From NCBI GenBank assembly GCA_004022145.1, contig RCNU01000007.1: a stretch of 64,000 bases of DNA; one strand, given 5' to 3'. This stretch comes from Paecilomyces variotii (Eukaryota). This document shows positions 32,000 to 61,614 of this stretch, one piece after another. Position 1 is the first letter of the stretch; each line of letters starts with the position of its first letter. A program made the position numbers and the translations under genes. The notes below the pieces were generated by a model. That model did not search any database. It saw nothing but the letters and a program-made list of their open reading frames with translations, and was not told the DNA's origin.

Positions 32000-33652
32000 A
32001 TAGCTCTATGCTGGGCTATATATAATAATCTTAGCTATAGATAGCGGCCTTACCTTTTACTACTATATATTACTTCCTTATTATTATTATTATTATTAAA
32101 TTATTGCTAATATCTTTATCTATTTTTAAGTTAAATCTAGGTTTATATTAATATTTATATTAAGATTAATTTATAGGTTTAGATTCTCTTTCAGACTTAG
32201 TCTTAGCCTTATCTTTAAAATCCCTATTAATATTAGGGGTATTTATAAGGTTCTTTAGCTTAGATTTAAAACTAGGTCTAGGATTAGGGGTATTAATAGG
32301 ATATTTTAACTTATATTTCTTATGCTTAGAAATATCTGTAGAGTTTTTTAACTTAGGCTTTAAAATCTCTATAAAGTTCTTTAGCTTAGATTTAAGTAGA
32401 TATTTAGGCTTCTTAGGGGGTATTCTATTTTCAGGTCTAGTATTAATTAATATAGATGCTAGTTAGTTAAGATTAATAGCTTTCTAAGGGCTTAAATAAG
32501 TATTAGAGAGCATATTAAAAAGGATATTAAATAAGATATTTAATAGATTATTAGATAGGACTAACTGCTATAAGGCTTAGAGAGTTATATTTTAAGATAT
32601 TATTAATTATAAGGCTAGGGGGGCTAAATTCTAAGAACTTATTAGCTTCTTAAGAAAGATAATAGGTTGCTTTACTACTAGCTCTATAAATTTAAATACT
32701 ATATTATAGTAGTATTTTAGGCAGGCAGATATTATTTTAGTAATTTATTCTATTACTATAAACTCTCTAAAGATTTAAAAAAAAGATAGTAAGGTAATAG
32801 AGATATAGAGAGCCGCCTTATTTAGATATAGATAAAACCTAATAAACTCCCTATTAACCTCTATAATTTAGTTAATAGTTAGGAGCTTTATATATATCTA
32901 ATACTTATTCTAGGGGATATTATAGCCAATATAGAAGATATTAATAATTATCTTATTATCTACCTTATTATTATATATAGTAATCTTAATAAAAAAGATT
33001 AGGTGTTTTATATTATTTTTAGGGGTAAAATTAATTATCTAGCTAATTACTTATCTATTAAATAATAGTATTAATAAGATTAAATAGGGGATATAGCTAG
33101 TATACTCCTCTAAGCTAAGGTTACCCTAGTATAAAATATACAGATAAGCTTTAATTATAATCTTAAGGGCATTTAGTAGGTCCTATTTAATAAATAAAAC
33201 CCCTATATATACTATAATAGTATTAGGTAAAAATTTTAATAAGGGGTTATTATAATACTTAATTATTATATTAATAAAGTCTATAATAATTAGATCCTTA
33301 AAATAAGTATATTCCTTTATAACTGTATAGAAGTTAAAGACTAACTATAAAGCCTTTAGCATTGCCTATACTAAGTTTAAGACTATAATACCTATAATAG
33401 TATAATAATTAGTATTAATAGTAGCAGATATAATAATAAAGTAATAGAGGGGAATTAAATTAAATATTATTTAATATAAATAAATAACTATAGTCTAAGT
33501 AAGAAATAATATATAATAGAGCAGACCGACTTACAGGTAAAATATCCTTTATATATAGAAATTAATAGCATAATCTTAGGGAGATAATCTTAAAGAAATA
33601 ATTTTAATCTTCTAGAATATCTTTAGCAGTAGTATAATTTTAATAATAGCAT
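32000..33652 (-). pseudogene. Second Helitron ORF relic downstream of RepHel, intron-containing, possibly tandem OB-fold
   Basis: Candidate ATGs at 33652/33572 and a GTAAGT donor at about 33534. De-RIP reading gives beta-rich segments KYYNNP..DTIVV..G.LFV, GDPS.EEY..P and WNKYW..KLPT..IVEV.GEF.G, then a low-complexity tail. The fold assignment is inference. Confidence 0.4.
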
Positions 33653-33679
33653 AATCTTAATTACCCTATTAAAGATAGA

Positions 33680-36600
33680 TTTTAAACAGTCCTATATTAT
33701 TAGAATTAGTAGAGTCTAATTTTATTAAATCTAATAATATAGTTCTTAATAGATAAAGTAGGTCTAGGGCTAAAGCTAAGATTAATAAAGCGGGTAAAGC
33801 AAGTAGATTAAGGGGTAAAATAAAGAAATACTAAAGAACCTCTAGATAAACCTTATTAATAATTAATTAGGCTTTATTATCTGGGGAAAAGAGAATTAAT
33901 AGATTTTAGGCCTAAGTTATTTATAATATAATAATATAGAACTAACTATAAATAAAAATAGAGGTTTATAGATTTATCTTAATATATTTTAAGAACTATT
34001 CTTAAGATTTATTAATAATTATAGTAAAGGCTAGCTAAATAGAGAACTAAAGGCGGTATAATATAAAATAGAACTTATTAAGGGCTATTATTAGCTTAAT
34101 ATAAAAAATAAGATAAGTCTCCCTATTAAAATTATTATTATTAAGGCAAATTTTTAAATAATAAATAATTATATATAGCAGGATTAGCTAGATATTATTA
34201 TAAAATTCTTTTAAGGAATTTATATTATATATTAAGATAAGAGGAACCCCTATCTTTACCTACAGCTTAGCTAAAGAGATCTTAATTAAAATAATATTAT
34301 AAAAAATTTTAACACTAATCTTTTTATATAGCAGACCTTTATTAAGGTTATAAGTATTTATTAAGTATAGTATAATAATATCCCTAGGGAATTAAGCTAG
34401 CAGGTAAATATTAATAGATTTAATATCTATATTTTAAGAGGTTAGAATAATATAGCTATAAAAAAATCTTAAGTTTTAAAAAATAATCTATAGGTTATAA
34501 GGTGGGTAGATATAATTAATAAACTTATCTATATTAATAATCTAGTAAATAAAGGATAGCAGTAAGATATTGCTTATTAACTCTAGCTTATAGCTAAATT
34601 ATAATAGCTAATAAATTAATTAATAATTCTCTTAATTTATTATCTTTAGCTATATATTTTTTATAAGCAGTAATACCTATAATTAGTTAAAAATATAAAT
34701 ATATTAAAAATAGGCTTCTATAATCTATACCTAATTATTATAAAAAATAATAAGTAAGATTTATTAGAAATTATCTCTTAAAATAGTTAAGATATTATTA
34801 AAGGGCTTATTATATCTAGGCAGGTTATAATAAAGATCTTATAAGGTATAATCTATAGTATTATATATATAATAATATATTATTATTATCTTATCCTAGA
34901 TAATTAAAGAGATTGCCTAGATAAGGTCTATTAAATATAAGCTATAGTTAATATAGTAAATTAACTCTTCCTTAATATTAATTAGAATATAGAATTATTT
35001 ATAGGCAATATAACCTTTAAGAAGAAATAAAATAGCGATCCTTATTAAGGTAATATAAAGAATAATCTTACTTTAAGACTAGAGGTAGCTATATAATATA
35101 ATATAAAGAAAGGTCTTTCTTATATCCTTAAAACTATAAAAGAAGAAATAAGTATCTATTAGGGTATTTATTATAGCTTTAATAATTATATTAAAAGCCT
35201 AATACTAGTTATAATTTAATTATAAGATAAGATCCTCTACTTATTAAATAAGTTTAATATAATTATAGCTTATCTTTTAAAGAATCTTTAGATTTAGGGC
35301 AGCCTTATATTAATTATTTAAATAAGGAGAGAGCTAATAATCTTTTAAAATCTTCTCCTCTATTAAGAGATTAATAGTAATAAAAAAAAAGCTATAATTA
35401 TAATAGGGAATATAATTAAAGATAAGATTATATTATAATTAATTATACTAAATATAATACTCTAGGTTATTATAGATATTATCCTTATATTTCTCTTAAA
35501 GCCTGCTAATATTTAAAAGGTCCTTAAAGATTATTATTATAAAGAATAATTAATAAAGTTAATAGCTAGTCTCTATATAATAGGCTTCTTTAAAGTATAA
35601 ATCTTATTTATTTTTACCCTATAAGATTCTATAAATATAATAGGCCTTATAAAATATTAGATAGATATAACTATCTATAGTCTAAATATTCTTAAAGCTT
35701 ATAAACTTATAGACTATTATAAGCAGATAGTAAAAAAAGTAAACTTTCTTATAAAATAATAATACCTACTTTACCTAATTAATTTAAAAGGCTTTTATTT
35801 AATAATATATCTATTTCTTTTTTTTCTATTTTTAAATAAAATAGTAAAGAAAGTTATAGAATAATAATAACTTAAAATTCTCTATATTAGCTTTATATAA
35901 TAATAGCAGTAAAAGCTTACTTACTCTCTTATTAATATTATATTAGAGAAAGGCTAATAATTTTAATAATACTTACTCTAAATAATTAGTAAGCTTTTTA
36001 ATAGACGCCTTTATATTATAGATAATAAGGTAATCCTCTAATAGGTAAATATAGAGGGTATAAATATTAGGACTAATCCTATAGGTAAAAAATTTAAAAA
36101 GATACTAAATTACTTCTAATACCCTAATATAATAGCTATTAATATAATTATAAATCTTATTAATACCTATATTTAGCTCTATAATTATATAGTTAAGTCT
36201 CTTATAGATATATTTATATAGGTATTTAATTATCTTAATACTGCTATATATCTTTATATTAATATAGGCCTTATACTACTATATCAGGTAAGGGTTATAG
36301 AGAATAACTTATTTATTCTTAATCTCTAAGAAGCTATTTACTTTAATTAAGTCTTAAATTTAAATCTATATCTTTTTTTCTTAGCAATACTTAAGATAAA
36401 AATCTTTAGTTAAGATAGTTTCTTTATAAAAGGGCTTAAGAAAATTTTTTAAGCATCTTAATACCCTATTAATCTCTTTTATATAAGGGGCCTTAGGATT
36501 ATAATAGCTATATAATTAATAGATTAGATTAATAGTAATAATATTATAAAACTTAAGATTCTGCTATTTCTAGAGTTTTAGCTATTTAAAGGTTGCTTAG

Positions 36601-38800
36601 CTATTAATAATAGGCTTAGGCTTATTAATAGTAAAAATCTCTATATAAATAATCTTATTAATATATTTAATAATAAATATTTTAAAGCTGCCTTTAACTT
36701 AAAGAAGAAAATAAATATAAAGGAGATTATATTTCTAATATTTAACTACCCAGATATTAATAATATATTCCCTAAAGATTAAATCTTTATATAGCTTAGA
36801 TATAAGTTTTAACAGCTTAATATAGAATATATAGGCTATTAAGTTAAGATAATTTTCCTAAGACTAAATAGGAACGCTAGTTGCGTCCCTAATAAGTTTA
36901 GCCTAAATCTTATTCTAATATAGGTTTACTATAAAAGTAATAAAAAGATAAGGCTTTTTAAATTTATAGATAATAGCTATAGAGTCTTAATAGTACTATT
37001 ATATAAAGCAATTACTACCTATAAAGCTTAATAGAAGAATATATAATTTATTTATATTAATAGGATTAGTGCTAATAGCTATAGTAAGAGCTATTTTAAT
37101 AATATTATATCTCTTAGCTTAGAGTTTATTTTAGTACTGTTTAAACTAATTTAACTTATACTACTTAATAAATAATTATAGATTTATAATAAATTATTAA
37201 TAAAGATAGCTAGTATATTATACTATATTAAAATTATCTAGGTATTAAAATAAAAGCTAGTAATAATAAATAAGTAATATAATTTATATCTATTAATATT
37301 TTTAGCTTCTATAGATAAGACTTAGCAGCTAAAGCTATTAGTACTAACCCCTTTTATCTTAAAAAAAAAAGAATATATTAGAGGAGAATATATAGCAGGT
37401 GCAAATAGTAGATTAATATAAGATATTATCTTAAATTAATTTACTAGATTATTAAGGAGCCCTAGAGAGCCGATATAATTTTCTCAGTTTTATCTTTATA
37501 TTATAGCTATAAGTTATATTTAAAAATAACCTAGGGTATATTATTATTATCCCTAAAGTAGATATTATCTTTTAATATCTTATTATTATTAGATATAATA
37601 TCTATATTCTTTTTTAACTAATTAGATATTAAGTATTATAAAAAGGGGGATTTAGTAAGGTAAAGATAGATATTATAAAAACTTACCTAATTATACTCTT
37701 TTATAATATTTAAAATAAAGCCTATTAGTTCTATTATTGCAGTTGCCAGATTATAAAGATACTTATTATCTTTATTAAGGATTAAATATAACTATAGGAT
37801 AAGATACAGGTACTATAATCCCTAATTAATATAATATTTAAGGATATTATAAGCATAATAAAAGACTCTTTAAAATAAATTAATCTTATAAAGTAATATA
37901 TCTAATTACTATATAATCTTAATATATATCTAAGGTATTAAATTATATTCCTGTTATATTTAATCTGCCTTTTAAAAATTAAGAAAATAGAGCTATATAA
38001 AAGAGAGTATTACTCTATATAGGGGGCTAATTTAGTAATAAAATACTCTCTATAATTAAAAGACTTACTAGTATTGCTAAGGGGCTAAATATTAGTTATT
38101 TATATAGGCTATAGAGGTAAAGGCTAGTAATATATTAATTAACTAGATATTTTTATAAAAGAGAATTAACTTTAGATTATTATTATTAAGGTATTTTTTT
38201 AATAATAATAGCGGCTCTTGTATTAATTCTATATTAAGGCTAGGCTTTATACTACTACTCTTATAGTAATAGTTAAAGATATTACTATTAATAATAATCT
38301 TGCAGCTTTAAAATAAAGCATAATAATATTTATATTAAATATTTATATAGCTAAAGAATAATTATTACTACTCTATTATTAATAAATAAAAGGCCCTAGA
38401 AATAGTTTTAATAGCTTATAGTCTAATTTTAATTATTTTTATAGGAGGTCTGCTTTAAGATATTTTAAAATAATAATTATAGATATTATAGATAGTATTC
38501 TTTATAAAATAGTTCTAATATTAAGGGTTTATATAATATAAAGAGTAATATATAGGCTATATAGCCTCTAGGATAGAGAGAAAAGACTACTTATAATTAC
38601 TACTGGATTTATAACTAGGAAATTAAGATTAAGACCTTCTTAGCTAGGTTTACTAATGTATTTAAGCTTAAAAATAAAATTATATATAATATAAACTTTA
38701 TAACAGCATATAAGATAAGTTAGAGATAATTAAAACAGCCTAAGAAGAGAACCTACTAAAGAATCTACTAAGGAATCTAATTAATTTAAAAGAGGAGATA
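33680..38800 (-). pseudogene. Helitron Rep/Helicase (HUH endonuclease + PIF1 helicase) relic
   Basis: De-RIP reading, in order: CxxCxA..CC zinc finger (~38300); FITFTANPxW (~36915-36955); VEYQKRGLPHVH (~36705-36750); KYLYKYIYKG (~36195-36230); GPGGTGKTF (~35105-35140); IIWDE (~34890); RLQFPIRLAFAMTINKSQGQSL..VFTHGQFYVAMSRV..VYPEVL (~34060-33835). Some small frameshifts occur. Start and end are approximate. Confidence 0.9.
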
Positions 38801-40924
38801 TTTTATAATAATAACTTAATTATAATATAATTTATAAAAAGATTAATAAATAATAATAAAGGCAATAAAAATAATTATCTTATTAAAGTTATTAAAAATA
38901 TTAATAATAATATATAAGGTAATAAAGTAGATTAAATCTAGCTGTAAGACTAGCTAGTAGAGATAAGAGATATAAAATAAGCCCTTATTCCTGCAATAAT
39001 AGCTATTAATACTTAAGTTATTATTAGACTTAATAATAAGCGCTGCTGCTATATATAACTATAATACTAAGATTATTTAAAACTTATATATATATTATAA
39101 CTATATCGCATATAGTGCCTATAATTATTAACTTATTTAAGCTATCTTTTAATAATCTATTACTAGCAGCTATTATAAATAATATTAGAAGATAAAGAGA
39201 TATAATAGTTATATTAAATATAATATTAGAGTATAGTTTAAGTAAATATAATAAATAATTAATAGGTAGACTTATATAAATACCCTATTATATATAACTA
39301 GGCCTTAAATATATATTTAATACAGCCTCTTTTAGCTAACAGATAATATAGATTATATAGATTATATAGATTATATTAATATATAGTACTGCTAGAAATT
39401 ATTAAAGATAATTTAAATAATCTTAAAAATATAAGCCTTATATTAGTATTAAGATAGCTAGAATAGCAATATATTAAAAAATTAAGATAAGATATATTAA
39501 AAATTTAAAGTAAAATATAATAGAGAAATAAGGCAAACTGCAATAATTTATCTTAGGATTAATATCTAGGAATAAGATAAGATAAAATAATCCTAGGGGC
39601 TAGAACTAATCTTATAAGAGATATTCTATCTATTATCTAAAGAGAATTATATAAATATTATAAAATCTTATTTTAATATCTTGCTAATATACCTTATTAC
39701 TCTAGAATTTATTATATAATTAGAATTAATTAACCCGCTATAGAGAATATAGCCTTAATCTCTAATACTTTTAATACTCCTAACCTAACTTTAAATATAT
39801 CTTTTTTTAGTAAAGTAACTAGGTAAAAATAATTATATTAATAGCCTATATAGTAATTAAAGATATTATCTTATTAATTAAATATATAACCCTAGTTAGA
39901 TCTTATTAGAGGTTATATATAGAAATATAAAAACTAATATAATAAGTATTCCCTTCTCTAGATATAGTTAACCTCTTACTAACTAATATAGCCTATTAAT
40001 AGCCTAAATATACCTTACCTCCTGCTAAACTAAATAAACTAAATAAATTAAATAAGATTAAAGACTTAGGGTATAAAGATAATAAAAGGTTATAGATAGA
40101 GGAATCTTAAATACTATTAAATATATCTTATTTTAATAATTATAATTATAGTAAGATATTTAATAATAATAATAATAATAATAATAGCACTTACTATATA
40201 CTAATACTAGCAGGTATTAATATTAAGCCTATTATTAAAGGTATAATAATTTATACCTAGATTAATAACTATAGGATAATAGTAGTTTTAGATAGTAGTA
40301 ATCTTCTTAAAATATTAAATATATTACAGTATAATAGCTATTAGGGCATTATTAAGGTATATTAATAATAGCACTATTAGCTCTAGGAGTATCTTATATC
40401 TCTAGTTTTATTTCTTAGCCAGTTAGCACTTTATAATTAGTTAGAACTTAAATTAATTAGTATAAGGGATTTAACCTAGATATTAATATTATACTGTAAT
40501 TTAGTATTATACAGTAATATATATATTTTAATATAGTAGGTGTAGTAGTAGTATTATAGGAAGATATATTAAGACTTAGCATAGAGTCTTTAAGCGAGTA
40601 GGTATTAAGAAGGAAGAGAAGGATATTTAGCTTTAGAGCTCAGAGTAGAGCTAGAGGAGAAGCTTTAGCTGTAAACTAACATAATAAACCAATAATAATC
40701 TGATGCTAAACTGATACTGAATAATAATAGAAAGATAAAGCTGATTATTTTATTCTAAATAACTGAAAGGTATCTCCTTTCTGTCCTTTGCTGCTTTACT
40801 TATAGACTTTTTAAAGACTTTAAGCAGAAGTATATAATCTCTTAACTAATTATATTCTTTATACCGATCCTCCCCACTATAGTAGTAGTACTGACTATAG
40901 ACATTTTTAATGTTTATATCTCTG

Positions 40925-46641: not shown

Positions 46642-47689
46642 TCATCCAAACGCTGGCGTCATGGAGTATGCAACTATCAGTTGGTCATCTGTCTTGAAGC
46701 ACTGCAGTTTACATTCTGTTAATTTGTATCGATAAAAAATGATATTGTTACTTACCCTCCAGAGACCACCTACGCCTTCATCTAGCCCCGGCGCGAAGAC
46801 ACTGTTCACGTAACAGAAAACAGAATCGGTATCTTTGCAGTCTAGTTTCTTTCGAAGAAACTTCACCACAGTTTCGAACTTTTGAGAAGCACTAATCTTG
46901 AAGACCCTGTTCTTCAGAATAGGTGCTGAGGGCAGCGGCTGGAAACGAACGGTCACTGGAGATTTCCTTGATGTCAGAGACTTTCAAACTCATCAATCAC
47001 ATATTATATCGAAAGTGATAGAATGCGAGTACAGTAGGAACAACTGTTAGGCTAGTGCTGATGACGCAAAAAGTATGGGTATGGCGGGACATCCTCATCC
47101 TGAAACGGTCACGACAGAAGGGCCACATGATAATGAAAAACGACAAAGTAGACAACGAAGCTTATACATAAATAGCAAAAAGAAAAGAAAACATAGGGAG
47201 AAAGAAGTAGTAAAGTAAAAAGTCTCTATGTCTCGTGTTTCGAGAAAGTGCAGGATCTTTTTATCTTTCGAAACATTGGCATCTCGCCATAGCTTTTCGA
47301 GCTCGGGGACGGCAAGAAAACAAACCAGAATGCCTCAATGCCAAAAAAAAGATAGATTAAAACCAGGAACCCAACAAATATAATACCCTCAAAATACAAT
47401 AAAAGTTAAAGAAACAAAACATACCTTTCCCCGTATCCAAAGCCTCCACATCCGCAAGAGCCTGATGAGCGTCACGTGGGAGACCCGTCAAGACGACCGA
47501 CGCAGACATCGTCAGCGGCAAATCCGCACCATGCTCATCGTCTGGGATAGGAGTAGTTCCAGCATTGGTAGCACCCTCGTTACTGGGTGTTCCGCTTCTG
47601 GGTCTGCGCGCGAGACCTGCTCCGGTGCCTGAACTGGACGGATTAGGTGAGTTGCGAGCGGAGCGATCTGGGGAGGGGGAGGGCTCCAT
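46642..47689 (-). CDS. atg12: Ubiquitin-like autophagy protein Atg12
   Basis: Exon 47689-47425, intron 47424-46956, then [29 protein letters not shown], a short intron, and C-terminal YSMTPAFG. Confidence 0.95.
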
Positions 47690-48399
47690 GGTTTCGATGG
47701 ATAGATTTTCGTGTCTTTCCAGAAGGGTTTTGGGTGTGTTATTAAGTGATATGTCTAGGGGGAGTTCAGAGCGTAGGATGATAGTGGGATTTGATATTGG
47801 ATTAAGATGTTTTATTGCTGGTCTCTGACGGGTGGAAAGATAGCGAGGTAAATTAGTTACATACTTAGAAAGGGCGGGGTGCTTAAGTACCTAAGTACCT
47901 AGTAGGCAGCGGAAGACAGCCTCCAGCTCCGATCCACTTGATCCGAAACAATCAACGCATTGAAAAGGGCCAGACTTGGTATAAATATGTCATGTAGAAA
48001 ACGAAGAAATAATTTCATGTCTAGCCATATTGAGCATTTACTATTTCGATCCACTAAATTTCAAGCGATCATACTATCATACTATTCATACAACTTGTTG
48101 TTGGACTCTTTCGAATCTCATAAAGGAACATGCCTCGTTCTCTAGATGGCTGAACAGTGCGAGCAACGTGGAAAATTGCTTACCATAGGAAGCTCTGGCA
48201 TTCGGACGACGATACACGCTCTGATTGTGCACTGGAGAGCTCAGATAACTGTTCAGGGCGTGTCGCTGACGGAAGTTACGATAGCAGATATAACACTCCC
48301 AGAAAGGACTGTTGAACGCGCGATCGGTAGCAGAGAACTCGGTAATATCCTGATATCCACCTAATCTGCTTGATGATAATGATACCTAATGGGTCATAC

Positions 48400-48712
48400 T
48401 GGCGTACCATGCCGGAGGCATGGTAAATCTGGGCGATTGCAGCATGCGTTTGGAGAAGAACATGGCTAGGAAGCTCAGTATTGTTGCCGTGTGGCCTTGT
48501 GAAACGAACATATTCCGGGCGGCCATCCTCAGGGTGACTGAGAGCATGAGGCAGGAGATACAGACAAGTCTTGATCTTATATACGTTCTCCTCATCCTGG
48601 TTTAGTAAGCATAAATTCTCTTCATGTACTTTGGGTATATACTGACAGTGCTTTCGAGAGCAAGTTTGAATCGGCCGAATTGATCGTTTAGGAATAGGAG
48701 TTGCGGTCATTG
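48400..48712 (-). pseudogene. Fragment of a fungal HNH endonuclease (HNH_2-type) gene
   Basis: NDQFGRFKLALEST, an intron, then DEENVYKIKT..LPSHVLLQTHAAIAQIYHASG. Frameshifted near 48695 and missing the N-terminus. Confidence 0.6.
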
Positions 48713-49817
48713 AATTCCGGGTTCATTTATCCAATCTGCCTTCATGACATCCTGTGTAGCTATGGGAACTCCATACCGCTCGACCGAAAAGGAGAACTCC
48801 TTTATGGTCTCCCCGGCTCTAACATTAGCTATATTATAAAATGGCATGATAAAATGAAGGACGAACTTGCGGGGACCGAGGATTGCAGTGAATAAACGGT
48901 GAGCAAGATTAGAGAGAGAACATTAATCAATTTTCTGGGTGATACAACAGCAAAAAGTTTGTTTTCCACCAAATGGTAGGTGATCTAACAAACTCTCAAT
49001 GATCTTCAGTCCTTATTGGATAGAAGACAGTATCCGGTCAGTTTTTCTCGTGCATCTATCTCCTCGATATACAGAGCTTCTGGATTAGAGGACAGAGAGG
49101 ATAGACACCCACTCAGATCACTTAAGGCCTGAGTGAGCTGAGAGTCTGTCATGACGAGAAATGTAGAAAGAGCTCATATCTAGATAGAAATGAGATGGCT
49201 CGAACCTTTGGGGGCCACCTGGTTGTCGGAGTTGTCGCGCAGCCCAACTTTGGTGAATGTCGGAGTGAAGTGTTCCACGATCCCGTTCTTGCTCATTTAG
49301 GTAGCTAGCAATATTAATGATAGCTTGAAAGAGAACTCGCCGGATCTAGGAGGTTCCAATTGGAATGAGGCGGTTAAGACTTGAAGCTCTCCGGGCGAGA
49401 AGGCCAGGCAAAGGGGCCGCTGAAGCCTGGTTGGCTTCAATAATCGGCGGGGCACCTGACCCGCTGATCCGTGACCGGCGTCTCCAATTCTAGCCTGCCA
49501 TATCATCATCGCCGCCGCTGCCACTCCTGCCAACCTCTCCTTCTCTCGCCTGATTATACCACGCTTCGTCCATAAGTGTTTGCTGCCCTTCTCGCAACTT
49601 TACCTCTGAAATATTTAAGCCCTGCTGCTGTCAGGGTTCTCTCTGCCTGTTGCAACCGACATACTTCTCTAACTGCCCCGCTCTGCCCGCCGATACTTTA
49701 GGTGTGCACCGAGCTTATCAGTCCCCTCATTTCAGCACGCACTCGCTTTCAGAGTCTTTTAGCTCTTCTTAAAGCAGATAGTTCAATACTGCACCGAACA
49801 GCCTCACATATTTCAAG

Positions 49818-54552: not shown

Positions 54553-57500
54553 AGTGATTCGGACAATAGGGGTGCAGAGACCACTGAATATGCTGCGGGA
54601 ACTGCAATGACGGATCACGGTAATGATATCAAAGTTTGCTTTTCAGCTTCTAGTATAATATACCGCTATATGGCATATTTCAATAGCATACCATAGACTC
54701 CATATGGCCTTACATACATCATGTATTTCATCTGTGTCTTGAGCTGCCGCACCGAATGTTGCAGGATTGGCATCCTGAGCAGCGCTATTGATTCCGCGCA
54801 ACCCTGAGCTAATCGTAGATGTTAGAGAAAAGACTGGACCGAAAGATGCCCCATTCAGAATAAGTGGTAAGAGCTCTTGAATATCCGTACTTCCATCAGG
54901 TGCGAGTTGTCATATGCCTTGAAATAGTTGCCCTCTTGTCGTTTTGTATAAAGTCTGCCCGTAAGTATCGATGTTTTTCCTGCGAGTCGATGACCAGTGG
55001 GATTGGCTTAACAGGGGCGAAAACTTCGTTTGAAGTGTCCATAATGATGGAAGTCCTTGAATTCACAATTCAACAGTTTCCAATGGCCATTGCATTATGT
55101 GGTTCATAAATTGGAAAGTTGATTGCTTTATGAGTTAGTTGAAGAACTGAGCGCGGGTTATTCTCATCGATGACGAATGGGTTAAAATCCGCGGGTACAT
55201 CGAAATCGTGCCACAGACGATCGTTCTCCGCCTTTATCAACAGTGGCATTAGCCCACGGAAGTCCTCAATGGCATTGAAGTCCTCAGAATGAAACATGCA
55301 TTTCTTTATTGGGAAAAGATATAAACGACACCACGGCCGATTATCTTCGTCGGGAGCTTGAACCCGGCACGCTTTAATCAGAGCTCTCCGGGAGTTGGAC
55401 TGAGCTCTGCTGCCCACCGTGCCCGCGCCAGTTCTGTATACTGAAGAGGGCCCGGGGCTCAGGGGTTTTAAGCAAGCAACTAGCTGTTCGCTAGATGGAT
55501 CCGCATAACTATCTGCTTCCGTGCCATTCAGGATTTGACACATGCTGATAATGGACCACAGGTGTTTGCAGTTCTGGTGAGCCCCAGACACGGAATGATG
55601 CTTTCATAGACGTCTGCTGTGCACATTTAACAGTCTCCATGAATGCATGTCATAGTGACTTCTCCAAGGCTTCGAGATTCAGCATGTGTGAATGCAGCTC
55701 AACCGGAAAAGGCCTCGAAGAATATTTCTGAGAATGCCTGAGCGGTTATTCACCCAGTATCTGGTGAAATCCTCCTCCTATTTGACCCCGCTCGACCAGG
55801 CGAAGGGCGAGCATTCAAGTATATAGCCCGCTCTCGAGTGGCCTCGACTCTTGATTACTTTCTCATCCAGGATGGATTCATCACATCTCCAAAACGGTTT
55901 TATCCTTTTTGCAAGGTCAACTCTATTGCTTTCAATATCTCACATTATTTGTGTCTATGGTCGTTCCTTCCCATAAACTATAACTAGAATCTTTACTACA
56001 ATCTTTCGTGGCTTGGTAATCTTTTCGTTTCTCTCTCTTTTGATCACCATTTTGACAGATACCAAAGCTAAATAAACCCAATAATCCCCATACACAAACA
56101 CCTTCACCTATTTCTACCTTCTGCTTTGAATGCTCCAAATCTCAATTAGGAGATTATTATATATAATACGCCAGCATAACTTGTTATGTATTATTATCAA
56201 GCAGATTGAGTGGATATATAAGGATATCATAAAATCAAGTTCTTTACTACCGATCATGCGCCCAATAGCTCTATATAGAGTGCTATATCTACCATCATTG
56301 AAGTCAACCAGTGCCCCTTTTGCCTGGGCTTCTCGCATGGATGCCCGGAAAGCTTCAAATCCTTCCGCAGCTTCGGACCTGCAGTCTATCGAAATGTCTA
56401 TCTTTTCAATATCCCCCTATCCGTTCAATAAGGCAGTAGGTCGACGAATATGATCTCATTCCAGTGCCCGAAGTTGTCCGTAAGTGTTTATTCTGAATGC
56501 CATCTATTTCTTGTGAAGAGTCCCTAAATTCTAACTTTCCCAGTTTCCCGCATAGAAGAAATGGAATAGATCCCACAAATAAGCCGCCGGTGCGATGGCG
56601 GTTGGATATTATTCTCCATTACTGCGTTAGGCTCGAGCAGCAACGTGTTGCTGCTATCGATCCAAATAGGGCCTATTACTCCTATTATGTATAAATGCTA
56701 ACCTCCTCCTGACCGGAAAGTCGGACTATAGCATATGGCACGGAGATCATGGAATGTCGAGTTCGTCATTTAGGCCAAGATCAAACCATAAAGGTCTGCA
56801 ATCTCTTTCTACAATTTCGACCAAAGCATCAGTTATATCAGCGGTCTTTATTAACTTCTTTCTTATTTTCTCCATCGTTGCTTGTGCTCGTATTATTCCG
56901 AACTATCTAACTATAACCAGCTTCTTGAATTCCTTATTACTATTATATCTTTAGCTCTTGTGCTGATGTGCAGTTTTTGCAGATTTTAAGCTTACTATTT
57001 TTGGAGACGGAGGTATCTCGTCAATGTTTTTCCTATCTATATCTCACGAACTATCAACACTCCGAGTGAAGCCCAGAAGGTCCTGACACAGTATTTTCAG
57101 TTCGAAATTAGCAATAATCTAATTATACAAATACCTAAAAATTCGCCTAATTGTCCTATTTAATATTAATAAAGATAAGCGCGTTCTATAATTATGCTAG
57201 GAGTCACAAGATACTCGAAAGCGACTGCGAAAGCTCGTTACAAACTATGGGAATGATTTTGTCAAAAACAAGCATGGGATCAAGTCCTATGATGACACCG
57301 ACACGTGCACATGTTTTATATCGTGCTATACATTTCGTTTTCAGCTCTAACATGAGTCTTACTAAGAATATGAACTCCTAAAGGCGGGCGACTCTACTAG
57401 AAAATTTGAAAGGCCTCCTTGAAGCAAATCACTCAGTTAACACTTTTGCTAAAAGCTGGGCTGCCCTCTGGCAAGCTGATATCGGACCCCTGCGCAGGAT

Positions 57501-58829
57501 TGTAACCTGGGATTTGATTGTAGCGTCCACGGTCATTGCTAGTCCTATGTAACTAGACCTTGTTCAGATCTGCAAGTGTTCAAGGCTATGATATTTAGTG
57601 AGGGCCTGCAGTGGACAGATTCTGCAATAACGCCATCTCCTTTTGGAGAGTCAGGCTACGTCGCTCAAAATATAAGCGAATCTGGCTCCCTTAATCATCA
57701 AAAGATGCTTAAGAAGATATGTCCCTCGAGGAGTGGAAAGATGCAGAGACAAATTCCCAGACATCTCTGACCGCATGTATGTACGAGGAGTGCATGTTTC
57801 CGACCAGTGCATTCTATAGTTATCATCCCATACGCACTGGGTATATACGAGAACCGTGTGCAAGTAAGTCTCCTTTCTGTCCTTTTCTCTTTTTTTTGTA
57901 TCTCTTATTATTACAAACTTTCTGACATAAGTCTTCAGGAAGAAGATATACGCAATATCTAGACCTCACTCTTTGCGCTATTCCTGGACATACAGGATGT
58001 CATAAAGGCGGACTGGATTAACAAGCTGTTGATCAGGTGAGTACACCCAAAAGGCTAGAATTCAATATCCTTAATTAATACATTACCCTAGTGCCTGAAG
58101 AGAGACCAGCAAGCCTGCGTAATACGCACGCCGACCAGGTTGTTGTAGCTGCACACATTTTCCCGTTCAGCAGAAAATCGACAATTTTGGGCTTCTTTCA
58201 TGAGCTCTTTCTATCTTTCTTATCATGCCAGACTCACATCTAACTCGGGCCCTAAATGACCTGAGTTGGTCTATATCCTCCCTGTCCTCTAATCCGGACG
58301 TTCTGTATATCGAGGATATTGGACGCTATTTCCTCTTGCTGCTGAACCCATGTTCTTAATCTGAGAATTTTGCCATCGGAGCGGACGCACAATCCGACCA
58401 CCACAGCAATAACCTGGTTACACAGGTAAGCCATTTGCCCCAGACACATCTCGACATTGTATCTAGCGACTGATCAAACTCTCCACCACATTATATTTAC
58501 TCTCCTCCTGCTACTGAGACCAATACGCCACTTATCTATAGCAGCTATAATGAGAAAATGGCATCTCGTTTATCTACATCTCGTTTGTCGGCCGAAAGAA
58601 AGTTCCTTCCTTTTTCTGCTACAGAATTCCCTTCTATTATTACCTATCCTCCATTTACCTCCTGTCTATTCTCTGTCTGTCGTGTCCTGTCCTGTCCTCT
58701 CTGACAATATGAGGCGCTTCGCAACTACTGCCTCTGCGACCTTCCACTTGACTGCTATCCTCATCCACAGCTACTTCTTTGCTGCATTCTTGGTGCTCAT
58801 GATGGTTGATTATAACACTGAATGCCCTG

Positions 58830-58897
58830 CTCTTATTTACTCTTCGCCTGCTATCCTTGATCGCAAACCTGGAGGTGTCTCTCGATTCCGTACCAAT
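58830..58897 (+). pseudogene. Tiny Ty3/gypsy reverse-transcriptase-like fragment
   Basis: YSSPAILDRKPGGVSRFRTNY resembles the gypsy RT motif SSPVLFVxKPGGGLRFCVDY. Confidence 0.5.
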
Positions 58898-59498
58898 TAT
58901 TTATTGATGGATTTGGCCTCTACAGAAATATGTACCGCAGCCTAACAGGCGTTTATCTAATTCCAGCTTGTTTAACTGCGTCAGAAAGAGCTAAGGCAGC
59001 GAATATATTTCCGATAACACTGGGACCGCATGCCAGCAACTTTCCTGATGTAATATCGTCTCTGTCTCGACTTACAGCCCTGGATAAAGGAATCAGCATG
59101 CATCTTAATCAGCTTTTGTCCTCTCCTCTATTTTTGAGCCTTACGGCGTGAGTGAGAGCCTACGTATGGTTTTCGACGGCCAATGGACAGTAACGAACCC
59201 TCTAGCACGCCTTCCGGCTCCTAAGCTGGATATTACGATTGGTGCTTCTATATGGCAAACGGCCTATATTGACACAGCTCTCTCACTGGAGGCGCTCCTC
59301 TGCCCCGTTGTCTGCTGCCCAGAGCTTATGGTACCGACGTTTACAGTGGAAGCCAAGTGCTTCCAACATCCTGAGTATGCGGCTAGACAGAACAGGCTCA
59401 ACGGGGCCATAATGCTCCGTAACATCCAGGAGAAGAATGAGGAGGTAATGGTCAGCACCTTCTGTCTTGCATTCCTTGGAGATATGCCGCAGCAGCAG
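58898..59498 (+). pseudogene. Interrupted CACTA/Plavaka-like DDE transposase fragment
   Basis: IDGFGLYRNMYRSLTGVYLIPA..NIFPITLGPHASNF..LDKGISMHLN, an insert at 59110-59438, then EEVMVSTFCLAFLGDMPQQQ. Confidence 0.55.
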
Positions 59499-59764
59499 GT
59501 TTACCAGACGTTAGTGGCTGTCAGAGGTTTGGCTGCAAGGACATACGAGCTCTTTCCGAATAGGTCTCCAGGGACGACATACAGCTGAATCGACGAAGAT
59601 AGTGCGAACAATGTACACAGTGCATATGCTATCTGAATAAGGGCAGGTTCAACGACGACTTCTCCAGGGCCCTATGGTACTAGAGGTTCCTGCCAAACGA
59701 ACTCGCACTCTAGGGAACATATCCTCGGAAATCCAGTCCCCAAGGATCCTAGGCATTGCCTATT

Positions 59765-59862
59765 TGTACAAACTGCGAATGACTACAGCGTATCACCCCA
59801 GTGCTGAAGGGCAGTCTGAGCGGACCAATGCGACTATGGAAACCATGCTCAGATATCTCCTA
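59765..59862 (+). pseudogene. Ty3/gypsy integrase core fragment
   Basis: KLRMTTAYHPSAEGQSERTNATMETMLRYL matches the integrase motif TTAYHPQTDGQSERxN. Confidence 0.75.
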
Positions 59863-60557
59863 GTGGAACAATGTGAAGTTCATCATCTTCAACAGGTCCA
59901 ACATGCGCAAGCACGTATCGAGGAGCTACAGCAGTTCAATGTCCGACGTTCAGTCTAGCATGGAAGAGAAGTCTTTTTATTCTTTCGATGCGCGCTAACT
60001 GACTCTACAAGAATATCGTGATTGTCTTCTTGCATAAGGCATTCTCCTCCACCAGATCCGTTATTTCGGACAAAATCATCCGTCTTGCTCATTGAAGTTC
60101 GAACGGACATTTTTCCTCCGTAAATGATACAGATAACCTTTTCAGGCAAGTTTGTCTTGGTCACAAACAAATGCAAACTCTTCCTGGTTGACTAAAGTTG
60201 GGGGTATGGTGTAAAAGCGGCAAGAGATCTATACTCTTGGGCCAATAAAATGCGTATTTTCTATCCATATTGTATACTCTCGGTCCAAATGTGGGCGAAA
60301 CTCCTAAGACCAAGGCCGTACTGACGCCCCTGCCGTGGATTCTGTATAGTACGTTGAAAACTGTGGATCTAGATCGGAGGCACGAGAATGGATCAATTCT
60401 ATAGAGTCTGCAGAGTTTTCGATAGACATAAATAGGAAGATGGCATACTGTTTTTCTTTCTTGGAATTCATTCAATCTACAGGTTCGCAGTATCATACGT
60501 AGATTGAGACTACCTCGTTAACTTTATGATTGATTTCTTGAGTGAACTACCGCAATA

Positions 60558-61614
60558 ATGCCTTCCTACGCTATTACAGGTGCTAGTCGAGGACTTGGGG
60601 TAAGTTGCAAAGGGTTGAATTTCCACGTCGATACATGCTGACCATTGATCCTCTGATATAGTTCGAGTTCGTCCGCCAATTGTCCCAGACGCCAGGCAAT
60701 GTCGTTATCGGCCTGGTCCGGAACAAAGCCACAGCGGATCTAAAAGTCCAAGCACAGGGACTTCAGAACGTTCATATCATCGAAGTCGACTACACTGACC
60801 TCCCGTCTTTGAAGGTATAGGGCACCATAACAATTACCTTTTAAGAGTGCTAATAAAGAGATGCAGAAAGCGGCCGAGGAAGTAAAGGGTCTTACTGGCG
60901 GTGGTCTCGACTACCTAATCAATAACGCCGCCCTTGTATCCCATATTAGCTCTTCCAAGACATTGGCTGATTTGTATGTCGTCCTGGTCTCCAAGATGGA
61001 AAGTACACAGTCCAGATTCTAACATTTCACTCAATAACAGCGATAATGATTTCTCTACCATGGAAAAAGATCTCCGTGACAGTTTCGACATCAATGTCTT
61101 AGGCGTCATCAAGACGATTAATGCCTTCCTCCCGCTTATCAAGAAGGGAACTGTCAAGAAAGTCATCACGATATCTAGCGGAATGGCCGATCTCGAATTG
61201 ATTAACGACCTCGAGATACCTGTCGGGGCTCCATATTCTATCAGCAAGGGCGCCGTGAATGTTGCCATGGCCAAGTATAACGCTGTCTTCAAGCAAGAAG
61301 GGATACTCTTCCTTTCCATCTCACCGGGTATGGTGGCGACAGAGAGAGCAACTGAAGGTTAGTGATGGTCCTTTTGCTTGAGATTGAAGTAGTCGTTTGG
61401 AAACTAAGACAATTGCATAGAAGTTTCCGAAGAGGAGAAAGAAGGTTTTGGTAATTTGGCTGCCAAGTTCGCGGCATATGCGCCAGACTTCAAGAGGCCA
61501 CTGACGCCAGAAGAGTCCGTGAAAGCTGTACTCTCCGTGGTGGAAAAGGCTAGTGTTCAAGGTGGGTATGGAGGACAGTTTATTTCTCACCTAGGCACGA
61601 AGAAGTGGCTGTGA
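60558..61614 (+). CDS. Short-chain dehydrogenase/reductase
   Basis: MPSYAITGASRGLG|FEFVRQL, LDYLINNAA, YSISK (YxxxK) and ISPGMVAT; four introns. Confidence 0.9.

Follow-up and report, generated by a model that had tools for sequence, protein, structure and literature searches.

We have analysed a 64-kb window of the genome of the mould Paecilomyces variotii, in which short internal coding fragments of unrelated genes lie side by side on the plus strand between positions 58771 and 59865. At the heart of this mosaic, a 320-nucleotide (nt) fragment of a gene of the fungal family DUF7924 splits a fragment of a Plavaka transposase between two neighbouring codons. We propose, with a probability of about 60%, that the mosaic is inert repair debris, composed of filler DNA that was captured or copied during break repair and combined with rearrangement. 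The mosaic is real but ordinary in kind, with one unsupported piece, one neat pair of junctions and one conservation signal that is unexplained.

The first-pass annotation had described this region as a patchwork of five pieces of unrelated mobile genes, namely a gypsy reverse transcriptase (RT)-like motif, a CACTA/Plavaka-like transposase piece, a nuclease-like piece, the rest of the transposase and a gypsy integrase motif. The last four are real and share the plus strand (the integrase with moderate support), whereas the RT-like motif did not hold up. That short co-oriented internal fragments of unrelated genes stand next to each other is borne out, and so is the absence of visible element ends: no terminal inverted repeats flanking any piece were found in 55600-60600. 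The annotation counted all of these genes as mobile, but DUF7924 need not be a mobile gene.

A DUF7924 fragment between adjacent Plavaka codons

The left part of the Plavaka fragment (58864..59112, plus strand) corresponds to about amino acids (aa) 390-471 of a 777-aa relative, P0004, and contains the conserved FIDGFGLYRNMYRS block. The right part (59433..59498, plus strand), which ends in FCLAFLGDMPQQQ, continues the left one with the spacing of a second relative, P0001. Together they amount to 315 bp of internal transposase sequence. When 184 candidate proteins were compared with the open reading frame (ORF) at 58861-59151, 44 matched at E<=0.01, the best one at 8.9e-33 with 72% identity, and four of these 44 carry PF18759 (Plavaka transposase). 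Searched back against the window with tblastn, all 44 relatives match 58864-59112, and 34 of them also match 59421/59433-59498 at E<=1. The two matches comprise aa 390-471 and 474-495 in P0004, while in P0001, P0002 and P0008 they are directly adjacent or share one to two residues. A profile built from 12 full-length relatives places the left part at profile positions 399-478 (E 3.1e-44) and the right part at 478/479-501 (E 2-3e-6), exactly contiguous with it; the same profile finds no other Plavaka part in the 64 kb better than E 2.4. A hand count from the G after 'LTALD' to the 'FC' of 'FCLAF' yields the same number of residues in the window, across the insert, as in P0001. No transposase sequence is missing at the point where the two parts are split.

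The locus holds a Plavaka fragment and not a Plavaka element. The transposase is incomplete, being represented by about 105 residues (aa 390-495 of P0004), and neither terminal repeats nor target duplications accompany them. The label 'CACTA/Plavaka-like' is justified, because Plavaka has been grouped with EnSpm/CACTA, Mirage, Chapaev and Transib in a 'CMCT' clade (PMC12730594). Members of this clade are described there as having short CA..TG-type termini and 2-5-bp target duplications, those of Plavaka itself being TGT..ACA or CATCA..TGATG with target duplications of 2-3 bp. The tblastn search also pointed to another Plavaka-like piece, at 48692-48480 (E 0.002), which was dropped because the family profile misses it. 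The right part is followed by a tail without family assignment (59499..59536, plus strand), the end of which coincides with a structural breakpoint in a relative (see below).

The insert itself (59113..59432, plus strand) is an internal DUF7924 fragment that corresponds to about aa 187-297 of a 392-aa protein, P0046, and includes 'KLDITIG ... FTVEAK', a PD...ExK-type motif. Pfam DUF7924 (PF25545) matches it over profile positions 48-138 of 225 at E 0.001, with 19.2 bits against a cut-off of 27; a score below the cut-off is expected because the domain is partial. In a phmmer search of 1.84 billion proteins, P0046 is the best match besides the insert's own protein (E 2.3e-21, 58% identity). The list at E<=0.001 comprises 19 proteins, 15 of which pass the Pfam DUF7924 cut-off, two fall below it and two are unrelated low-complexity sequences. 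A profile of 16 relatives, run against the window in six frames, recovers the insert at E 7.7e-33 (profile positions 91-191 of 318) and finds no other DUF7924 sequence in the 64 kb better than E 2; a minus-strand match around 57.8-57.9 kb has E 4.5.

Both junctions of the insert are sharp with essentially no unassigned filler. This follows from P0064, a paralogue that is encoded in other P. variotii strains and belongs to the 90% cluster of the closest relative: its alignment starts with the residue directly behind the left junction and reaches 'NIQE', at the right junction. In sequencing run X9, the contig of a paralogue agrees with the window over 59394-59431, beyond which it runs on, in the same reading frame, into different sequence (contig loose ends inspected by eye). 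On its right side the insert thus stops within an exon and not at an element or exon boundary. At most 2-3 nt, 'CAG', are common to the two ends. A 19-nt inverted match of 58655-58673 with 59430-59448 (79% complementary), whose right arm lies exactly on the DUF7924/Plavaka junction, is at chance level, with six such pairs in 5 kb.

The possibility that DUF7924 travels as a passenger gene of Plavaka was rejected: none of 45 Plavaka-bearing metagenome contigs (291 kb) carries DUF7924, and the two are therefore not parts of one element. DUF7924 is listed among the most copy-number-variable families of the Neurospora pangenome (PMC13412767).

A degenerate DUF7924-like scrap of 16 codons with two stops lies further to the left (58771..58818, plus strand). 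It is the best site for the peptide of aa 170-205 of P0046, and its score is reached in none of 300 shuffles (3.5 kb in six frames); P0061 picks the same site, non-significantly (191 of 300 shuffles). Five further DUF7924 scraps were discarded as non-significant, since 15, 18, 279, 30 and 71 of 300 shuffles reach their respective scores. Inspected by eye, the loose ends of an X9 contig look like about 58771-58873 after C-to-T / G-to-A mutation. An interleaved order of DUF7924, Plavaka, DUF7924 and Plavaka, as copied from alternating templates, was considered and dropped, because the alignment of P0064 shows that the segment repeated in the small scrap is present in the large DUF7924 piece as well. 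At the DNA level the scrap and the large piece show no similarity, with a score of 19 (null mean 18.1) that 173 of 500 shuffles reach.

DUF7924 as a predicted nuclease-like family

Judging by its fold, as modelled, and its motif, DUF7924 belongs with the PD-(D/E)XK nuclease-like proteins. Three residues (D239, E281 and K283 in the numbering of P0055) are invariant or nearly so in 15 DUF7924 sequences, and the piece in the window retains the corresponding 'LD' and 'EAK'. The AlphaFold model of P0055 (mean predicted local distance difference test score, pLDDT, 77.7) was compared with 48,161 chains by VIA-align. Two mitoribosomal large-subunit proteins come out on top (Z 12.6 and 11.5), and from rank 3 the matches are mostly restriction-type nucleases: BpuSI at Z 9.1 (root-mean-square deviation 3.8 A over 148 residues), DrdV at 8.8, HsdR at 7.8, EcoRI at 6.1 and NgoMIV at 4.9. 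Given the two top ranks, a link between DUF7924 and mitoribosomal proteins is possible as well. Foldseek against the PDB gives mitoribosome chains at template modelling (TM) scores of 0.3-0.38, which is ambiguous alone. The DUF7924 profile finds designed proteins only among the PDB sequences, and an atlas look-up points to a PD-(D/E)XK cluster at 0.91, to be read as a lead only. The D...E-x-K motif together with the restriction-type fold matches makes the label 'nuclease-like' a reasonable one, and this uncharacterised fungal family gains a fold-level assignment to the PD-(D/E)XK nuclease-like proteins.

Retroelement motifs

About 270 bp to the right of the Plavaka/DUF7924 block lies a stretch of about 95 bp (59773..59865, plus strand; LRMTTAYHPSAEGQSERTNATMETMLRYLLV) that, with moderate support from its sequence matches, appears to be an integrase-core scrap of about 31 residues, possibly of Ty3/gypsy type. 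All seven PDB matches of the ORF at 59641-59958 are retroviral or Ty3 integrases, as are all nine matches of the trimmed 57-aa piece, which include Ty3 Gag-Pol and reach a best E of 0.012 over about 31 residues. The alignments centre on 'YHP..G..ER.N'. The piece has no Pfam match (no rve), and none of the 79 candidates for the ORF among 5.8 billion proteins reaches E<=0.01. The best entry in the atlas look-up is unnamed (0.86) and an integrase cluster follows at rank 21 with 0.85, a lead at most.

The motif previously read as gypsy RT (58841..58900, plus strand) is unsupported. It has no Pfam match, its four PDB matches are all unrelated and include no RT chain, and its 34-aa core has no match in the PDB. 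The right half of the motif consists of Plavaka codons read in another frame, bases 58873-58900 encoding the Plavaka residues 'RCLSIPYQLF'. Without this piece, the mosaic has no frame of gypsy sequence on both sides. Among 32 ORFs of the 45 Plavaka-bearing contigs there were no gypsy pol genes; these ORFs gave only long interspersed nuclear element (LINE)-like RT/endonuclease and DDE_Tnp_1_7 transposase.

A structural breakpoint in a relative

A relative for comparison is provided by run X5, which is deposited under another organism label. Its contigs add up to about double the size of the other sets, and it may therefore hold two genomes. One of its contigs, of 669 nt, begins with about 30 nt like 58287-58316, continues with 24 nt identical to 49060-49037 (minus strand) and then follows 59537-60124 with eight differences. 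Since this contig joins 49037 (minus strand) to 59537, a structural breakpoint lies at 59536/59537. An inversion of roughly 10.5 kb between the relatives could account for this junction, the only one seen.

This bears on the proposal of the first-pass annotation that the pieces were assembled by repeated fragment capture through break repair or template switching. The DUF7924 insert between Plavaka codons agrees with such capture, but 59536/59537 coincides with a rearrangement breakpoint in the relative, and not every junction therefore needs fragment capture.

Repeat-induced point mutation and state of decay

Repeat-induced point mutation (RIP) requires roughly 0.4-1 kb of sequence in Neurospora. 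No piece of the mosaic exceeds about 320 bp, and the pieces may have stayed unmutated by lying below this length. In P. variotii RIP has been found experimentally active (PMC6300479). The mosaic is nevertheless not RIP-mutated: its composite RIP index (CRI) is -0.43, versus +1.10 for an AT-rich block of the same window (32-40.5 kb). In this block (32000-40500) TpA/ApT is 1.36 and (CpA+TpG)/(ApC+GpT) is 0.26, a strong RIP signature. A transition-tolerant alignment of 58400-60100 with the AT-rich block revealed no relation between them, the scores being 38 and 39.5 versus 36-48.5 in ten shuffles.

Origin of the mosaic

In the reading that we favour, the repair of chromosome breaks would have involved end joining or brief copying from elsewhere (filler DNA, templated insertion), in the course of which fragments of at most 320 bp were pasted in. 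At least one larger rearrangement would then have put the block beside integrase-bearing DNA, at the breakpoint 59536/59537. The stretch itself would be functionless, and a gene caller, and probably weak transcription too, would have read an orphan open frame across it. Insertion by capture or copying is favoured over nested transposition with subsequent deletions because 320 nt have been placed between adjacent Plavaka codons without loss. For none of the pieces were element ends, target-site duplications or other parts of the parent found.

Several observations weigh against inert debris. In X5, 58287-59103 and 59129-59391 show no difference from the window in 1080 nt, while five flanking contigs have 74 differences in 3439 nt (about 2%). 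Another contig, 234 nt at 60187-60420, is identical as well; the absence of X5 cover on 59392-59536 proves nothing. The identity over 1080 nt may reflect mosaic ancestry, recent spread or constraint. Furthermore, the four good pieces contain no stop in 242 codons of their native frames. Simulated neutral decay makes such an outcome likely only below about 10% divergence (P 0.09 at 10%, 0.016 at 20%), which leaves a recent origin or constraint as explanations. Contigs of run X14, taken for RNA by guess, hint at real transcription and splicing.

The best placed of the rivals, though an unlikely one, is nested transposition, in which a retroelement was hit by Plavaka and Plavaka by a DUF7924-carrying element, each being trimmed to a stump by later deletions. 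The order Plavaka, DUF7924, Plavaka is indeed nested, and RIP-mutated retroelements are reported as common in P. variotii (PMC6300479). However, with the outer 'gypsy RT' arm gone only one layer of nesting is left. Deletion of both flanks of the inserted element would have to end precisely at the two Plavaka codons and leave these intact. The DUF7924 piece is internal to its gene, its right end lying inside the exon of a paralogue. No termini or target duplications were found, and DUF7924 accompanies Plavaka in none of the 45 contigs.

Another reading starts from the annotated orphan gene (58550..59588, plus strand; coding sequence 58550-58889 and 59113-59588, GT..AG intron 58890-59112), the exon coordinates of which were recovered by script. 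Its intron is almost exactly the first Plavaka piece. The 271-aa product, 'hypothetical protein C8Q69DRAFT_528695 [Paecilomyces variotii]' (P0045), is 100% identical to the window ORF over part of its length and the sole member of its 90% cluster. Two X14 contigs cover 58263-58522 and 58582-58889, and the right-hand end of the latter coincides with the annotated splice donor, 58889. Exon 2 and the neighbouring dehydrogenase gene are without X14 cover, which proves nothing. Accordingly, 58317-59536 could be a young chimeric orphan gene made from scraps pasted by repair, transcribed, with the first Plavaka piece spliced out as an intron, and kept or recently spread between lineages about 2% apart in the flanks. 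We regard this as improbable; if true, the birth of a gene from the debris of a transposon and a nuclease gene would have been caught in the act in a RIP-active fungus.

Similarly improbable is that the mosaic was made elsewhere and arrived as a unit, as a copy of a composite mobile element, either a defective Plavaka or a Pack-CACTA-like element with a captured host fragment. Capture of gene fragments has been described for CACTA-type elements (PMC6379663), the right edge of the 1.2-kb block 58317-59536 is a structural breakpoint, and this block is identical over the 1,080 nt covered in X5 whereas its flanks differ by about 2%. Inverted terminal repeats are, however, absent around the block and around any part of it, and the ends of the block, compared by eye, are unlike the Plavaka termini quoted in PMC12730594. 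Nor does run X2, a short-read run of identical sequence here, show a second copy of most of the stretch: no second contig at least 80% alike was seen on 58454-59086 or 59298-60774, and the one bin with extra depth is 59087-59297.

About as doubtful is a functional locus, be it a chimeric orphan gene, a non-coding RNA or a small-RNA source that records transposon classes. The existing gene model, possible transcript contigs that end at a splice donor, open frames free of stops and the lack of differences from the relative over 1080 nt all speak for function. Against it, the orphan protein has no relatives outside its DUF7924 part among 5.8 and 1.84 billion sequences, the frame of the model restores no parent protein, X14 is RNA by guess only, and there is no match to an Rfam family. 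The suggestion, labelled speculative in the first-pass annotation, that the locus acts as a small-RNA or RIP memory found no support: X2 contains no second contig at least 80% alike over most of the stretch, and RNAs from most of it would therefore have no close target there. We know of no cluster-based transposon memory in filamentous fungi.

An assembly chimera, which the earlier annotation had named as a condition that would undo its account, can practically be dismissed, because an independent 3146-nt contig of X2 covers 57667-60812 with no differences and no gaps, and all sampled words of 58400-60000 are present in four runs from four studies.

Comparison with known systems

Filler used in break repair stems from retroelement complementary DNA (cDNA), organelle DNA and nearby sequence. 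The repair debris that we propose resembles the filler DNA and templated insertions described at double-strand breaks (PMC2567098) in its clean, short, internal fragments of unrelated origin, in the lack of element ends and target duplications, and in that little or no target sequence was lost. It differs from documented filler DNA in that the events are old, and its mechanism is inferred. Short segments from different places, in one orientation and with sharp junctions, are also reminiscent of template switching as in the fork stalling and template switching/microhomology-mediated break-induced replication (FoSTeS/MMBIR) models (PMC2621351), yet the interleaved pattern expected from alternating templates was tested here and dropped.

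Pack-CACTA and Pack-MULE elements likewise join sequence to unrelated gene fragments, the former with CACTA-related sequence as in the mosaic (PMC6379663). They hold the captured DNA between terminal inverted repeats, whereas the mosaic has no such repeats and its captured fragment sits inside transposase coding sequence. With the transposon relics of P. variotii and other RIP-competent fungi (PMC6300479) the mosaic shares the character of broken coding pieces in non-coding DNA. Typical relics are long, AT-rich and RIP-mutated, as exemplified by 32-40.5 kb of the window, while the mosaic has normal GC content, its negative RIP index and pieces of at most 320 bp.

Animal PIWI-interacting RNA (piRNA) clusters hold co-oriented fragments of several transposon classes in one locus. 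The mosaic is unlike them, with two to three transposon-derived pieces among which non-transposon pieces are mixed, and no close targets seen.

If our reading is correct, a mosaic of striking appearance amounts to ordinary genomic debris, a conclusion that saves follow-up effort. It also provides a clean natural case in which, in a mould with active RIP, part of one gene has been inserted between two successive codons of a transposase fragment. Such a footprint is what break repair with filler DNA is expected to leave, and it is little documented in Eurotiales, for which a limited literature search retrieved no description of filler DNA. In addition, transposon coding scraps of up to about 320 bp can persist unmutated in gene-rich DNA while RIP destroys full copies, and annotators can turn such scraps into orphan 'genes'.

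The surrounding spacer

The window is a gene-dense ascomycete chromosome stretch that encodes an SNF2 helicase, Sir2, Dbf4, ketopantoate hydroxymethyltransferase, a ubiquitin-conjugating (UBC) enzyme and a short-chain dehydrogenase, and includes the AT-rich block at 32-41 kb (GC about 0.19-0.25). The mosaic sits in a spacer of about 5 kb flanked by two housekeeping-type genes, the left ORF ending at 55603 and the dehydrogenase gene beginning near 60559. Scans of the sequence gave no Rfam and no transfer RNA match, and a Pfam search of 109 short spacer ORFs yielded nothing beyond chance except a weak HNH_2 match (E 0.012).

Short dispersed repeats make up the left part of the spacer (55900-58450) in mosaic fashion. 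In X2, 12 of 30 depth bins, nearly all left of 58.45 kb (mostly 55.9-58.45 kb), contain extra contigs that are 80% or more alike, and loose ends were seen in this run at 56109, 56510, 56563, 56663, 56758 and 58025. A separate 1541-nt contig of the same run matches 58025-58153 at about 86%. The weak HNH_2-like match, 'VVAAHIFPFS', belongs to the ORF at 58025-58189, which represents a further short gene fragment duplicated in the spacer.

The spacer also collects short copies of non-transposon DNA. A 117-bp duplicate (58200..58316, plus strand) has 83% identity (blastn) to 49177-49058 on the minus strand, and further copies with flanks of their own appear as contig loose ends in sequencing runs. 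In addition, 57992-58021 is a 30-bp copy of 48755-48726 (minus strand, 87% identity), and the two duplicates from the 49-kb locus stand in a different order in the spacer. At 49 kb, the duplicated sequence resembles the beginning of a transcribed gene. The ORFs at 47300-48720 (minus strand), downstream of the 117-bp duplicate, contain a C2H2-like 'C..C ... H....H' word and match no Pfam family; they look like a gene outside the recognised families.

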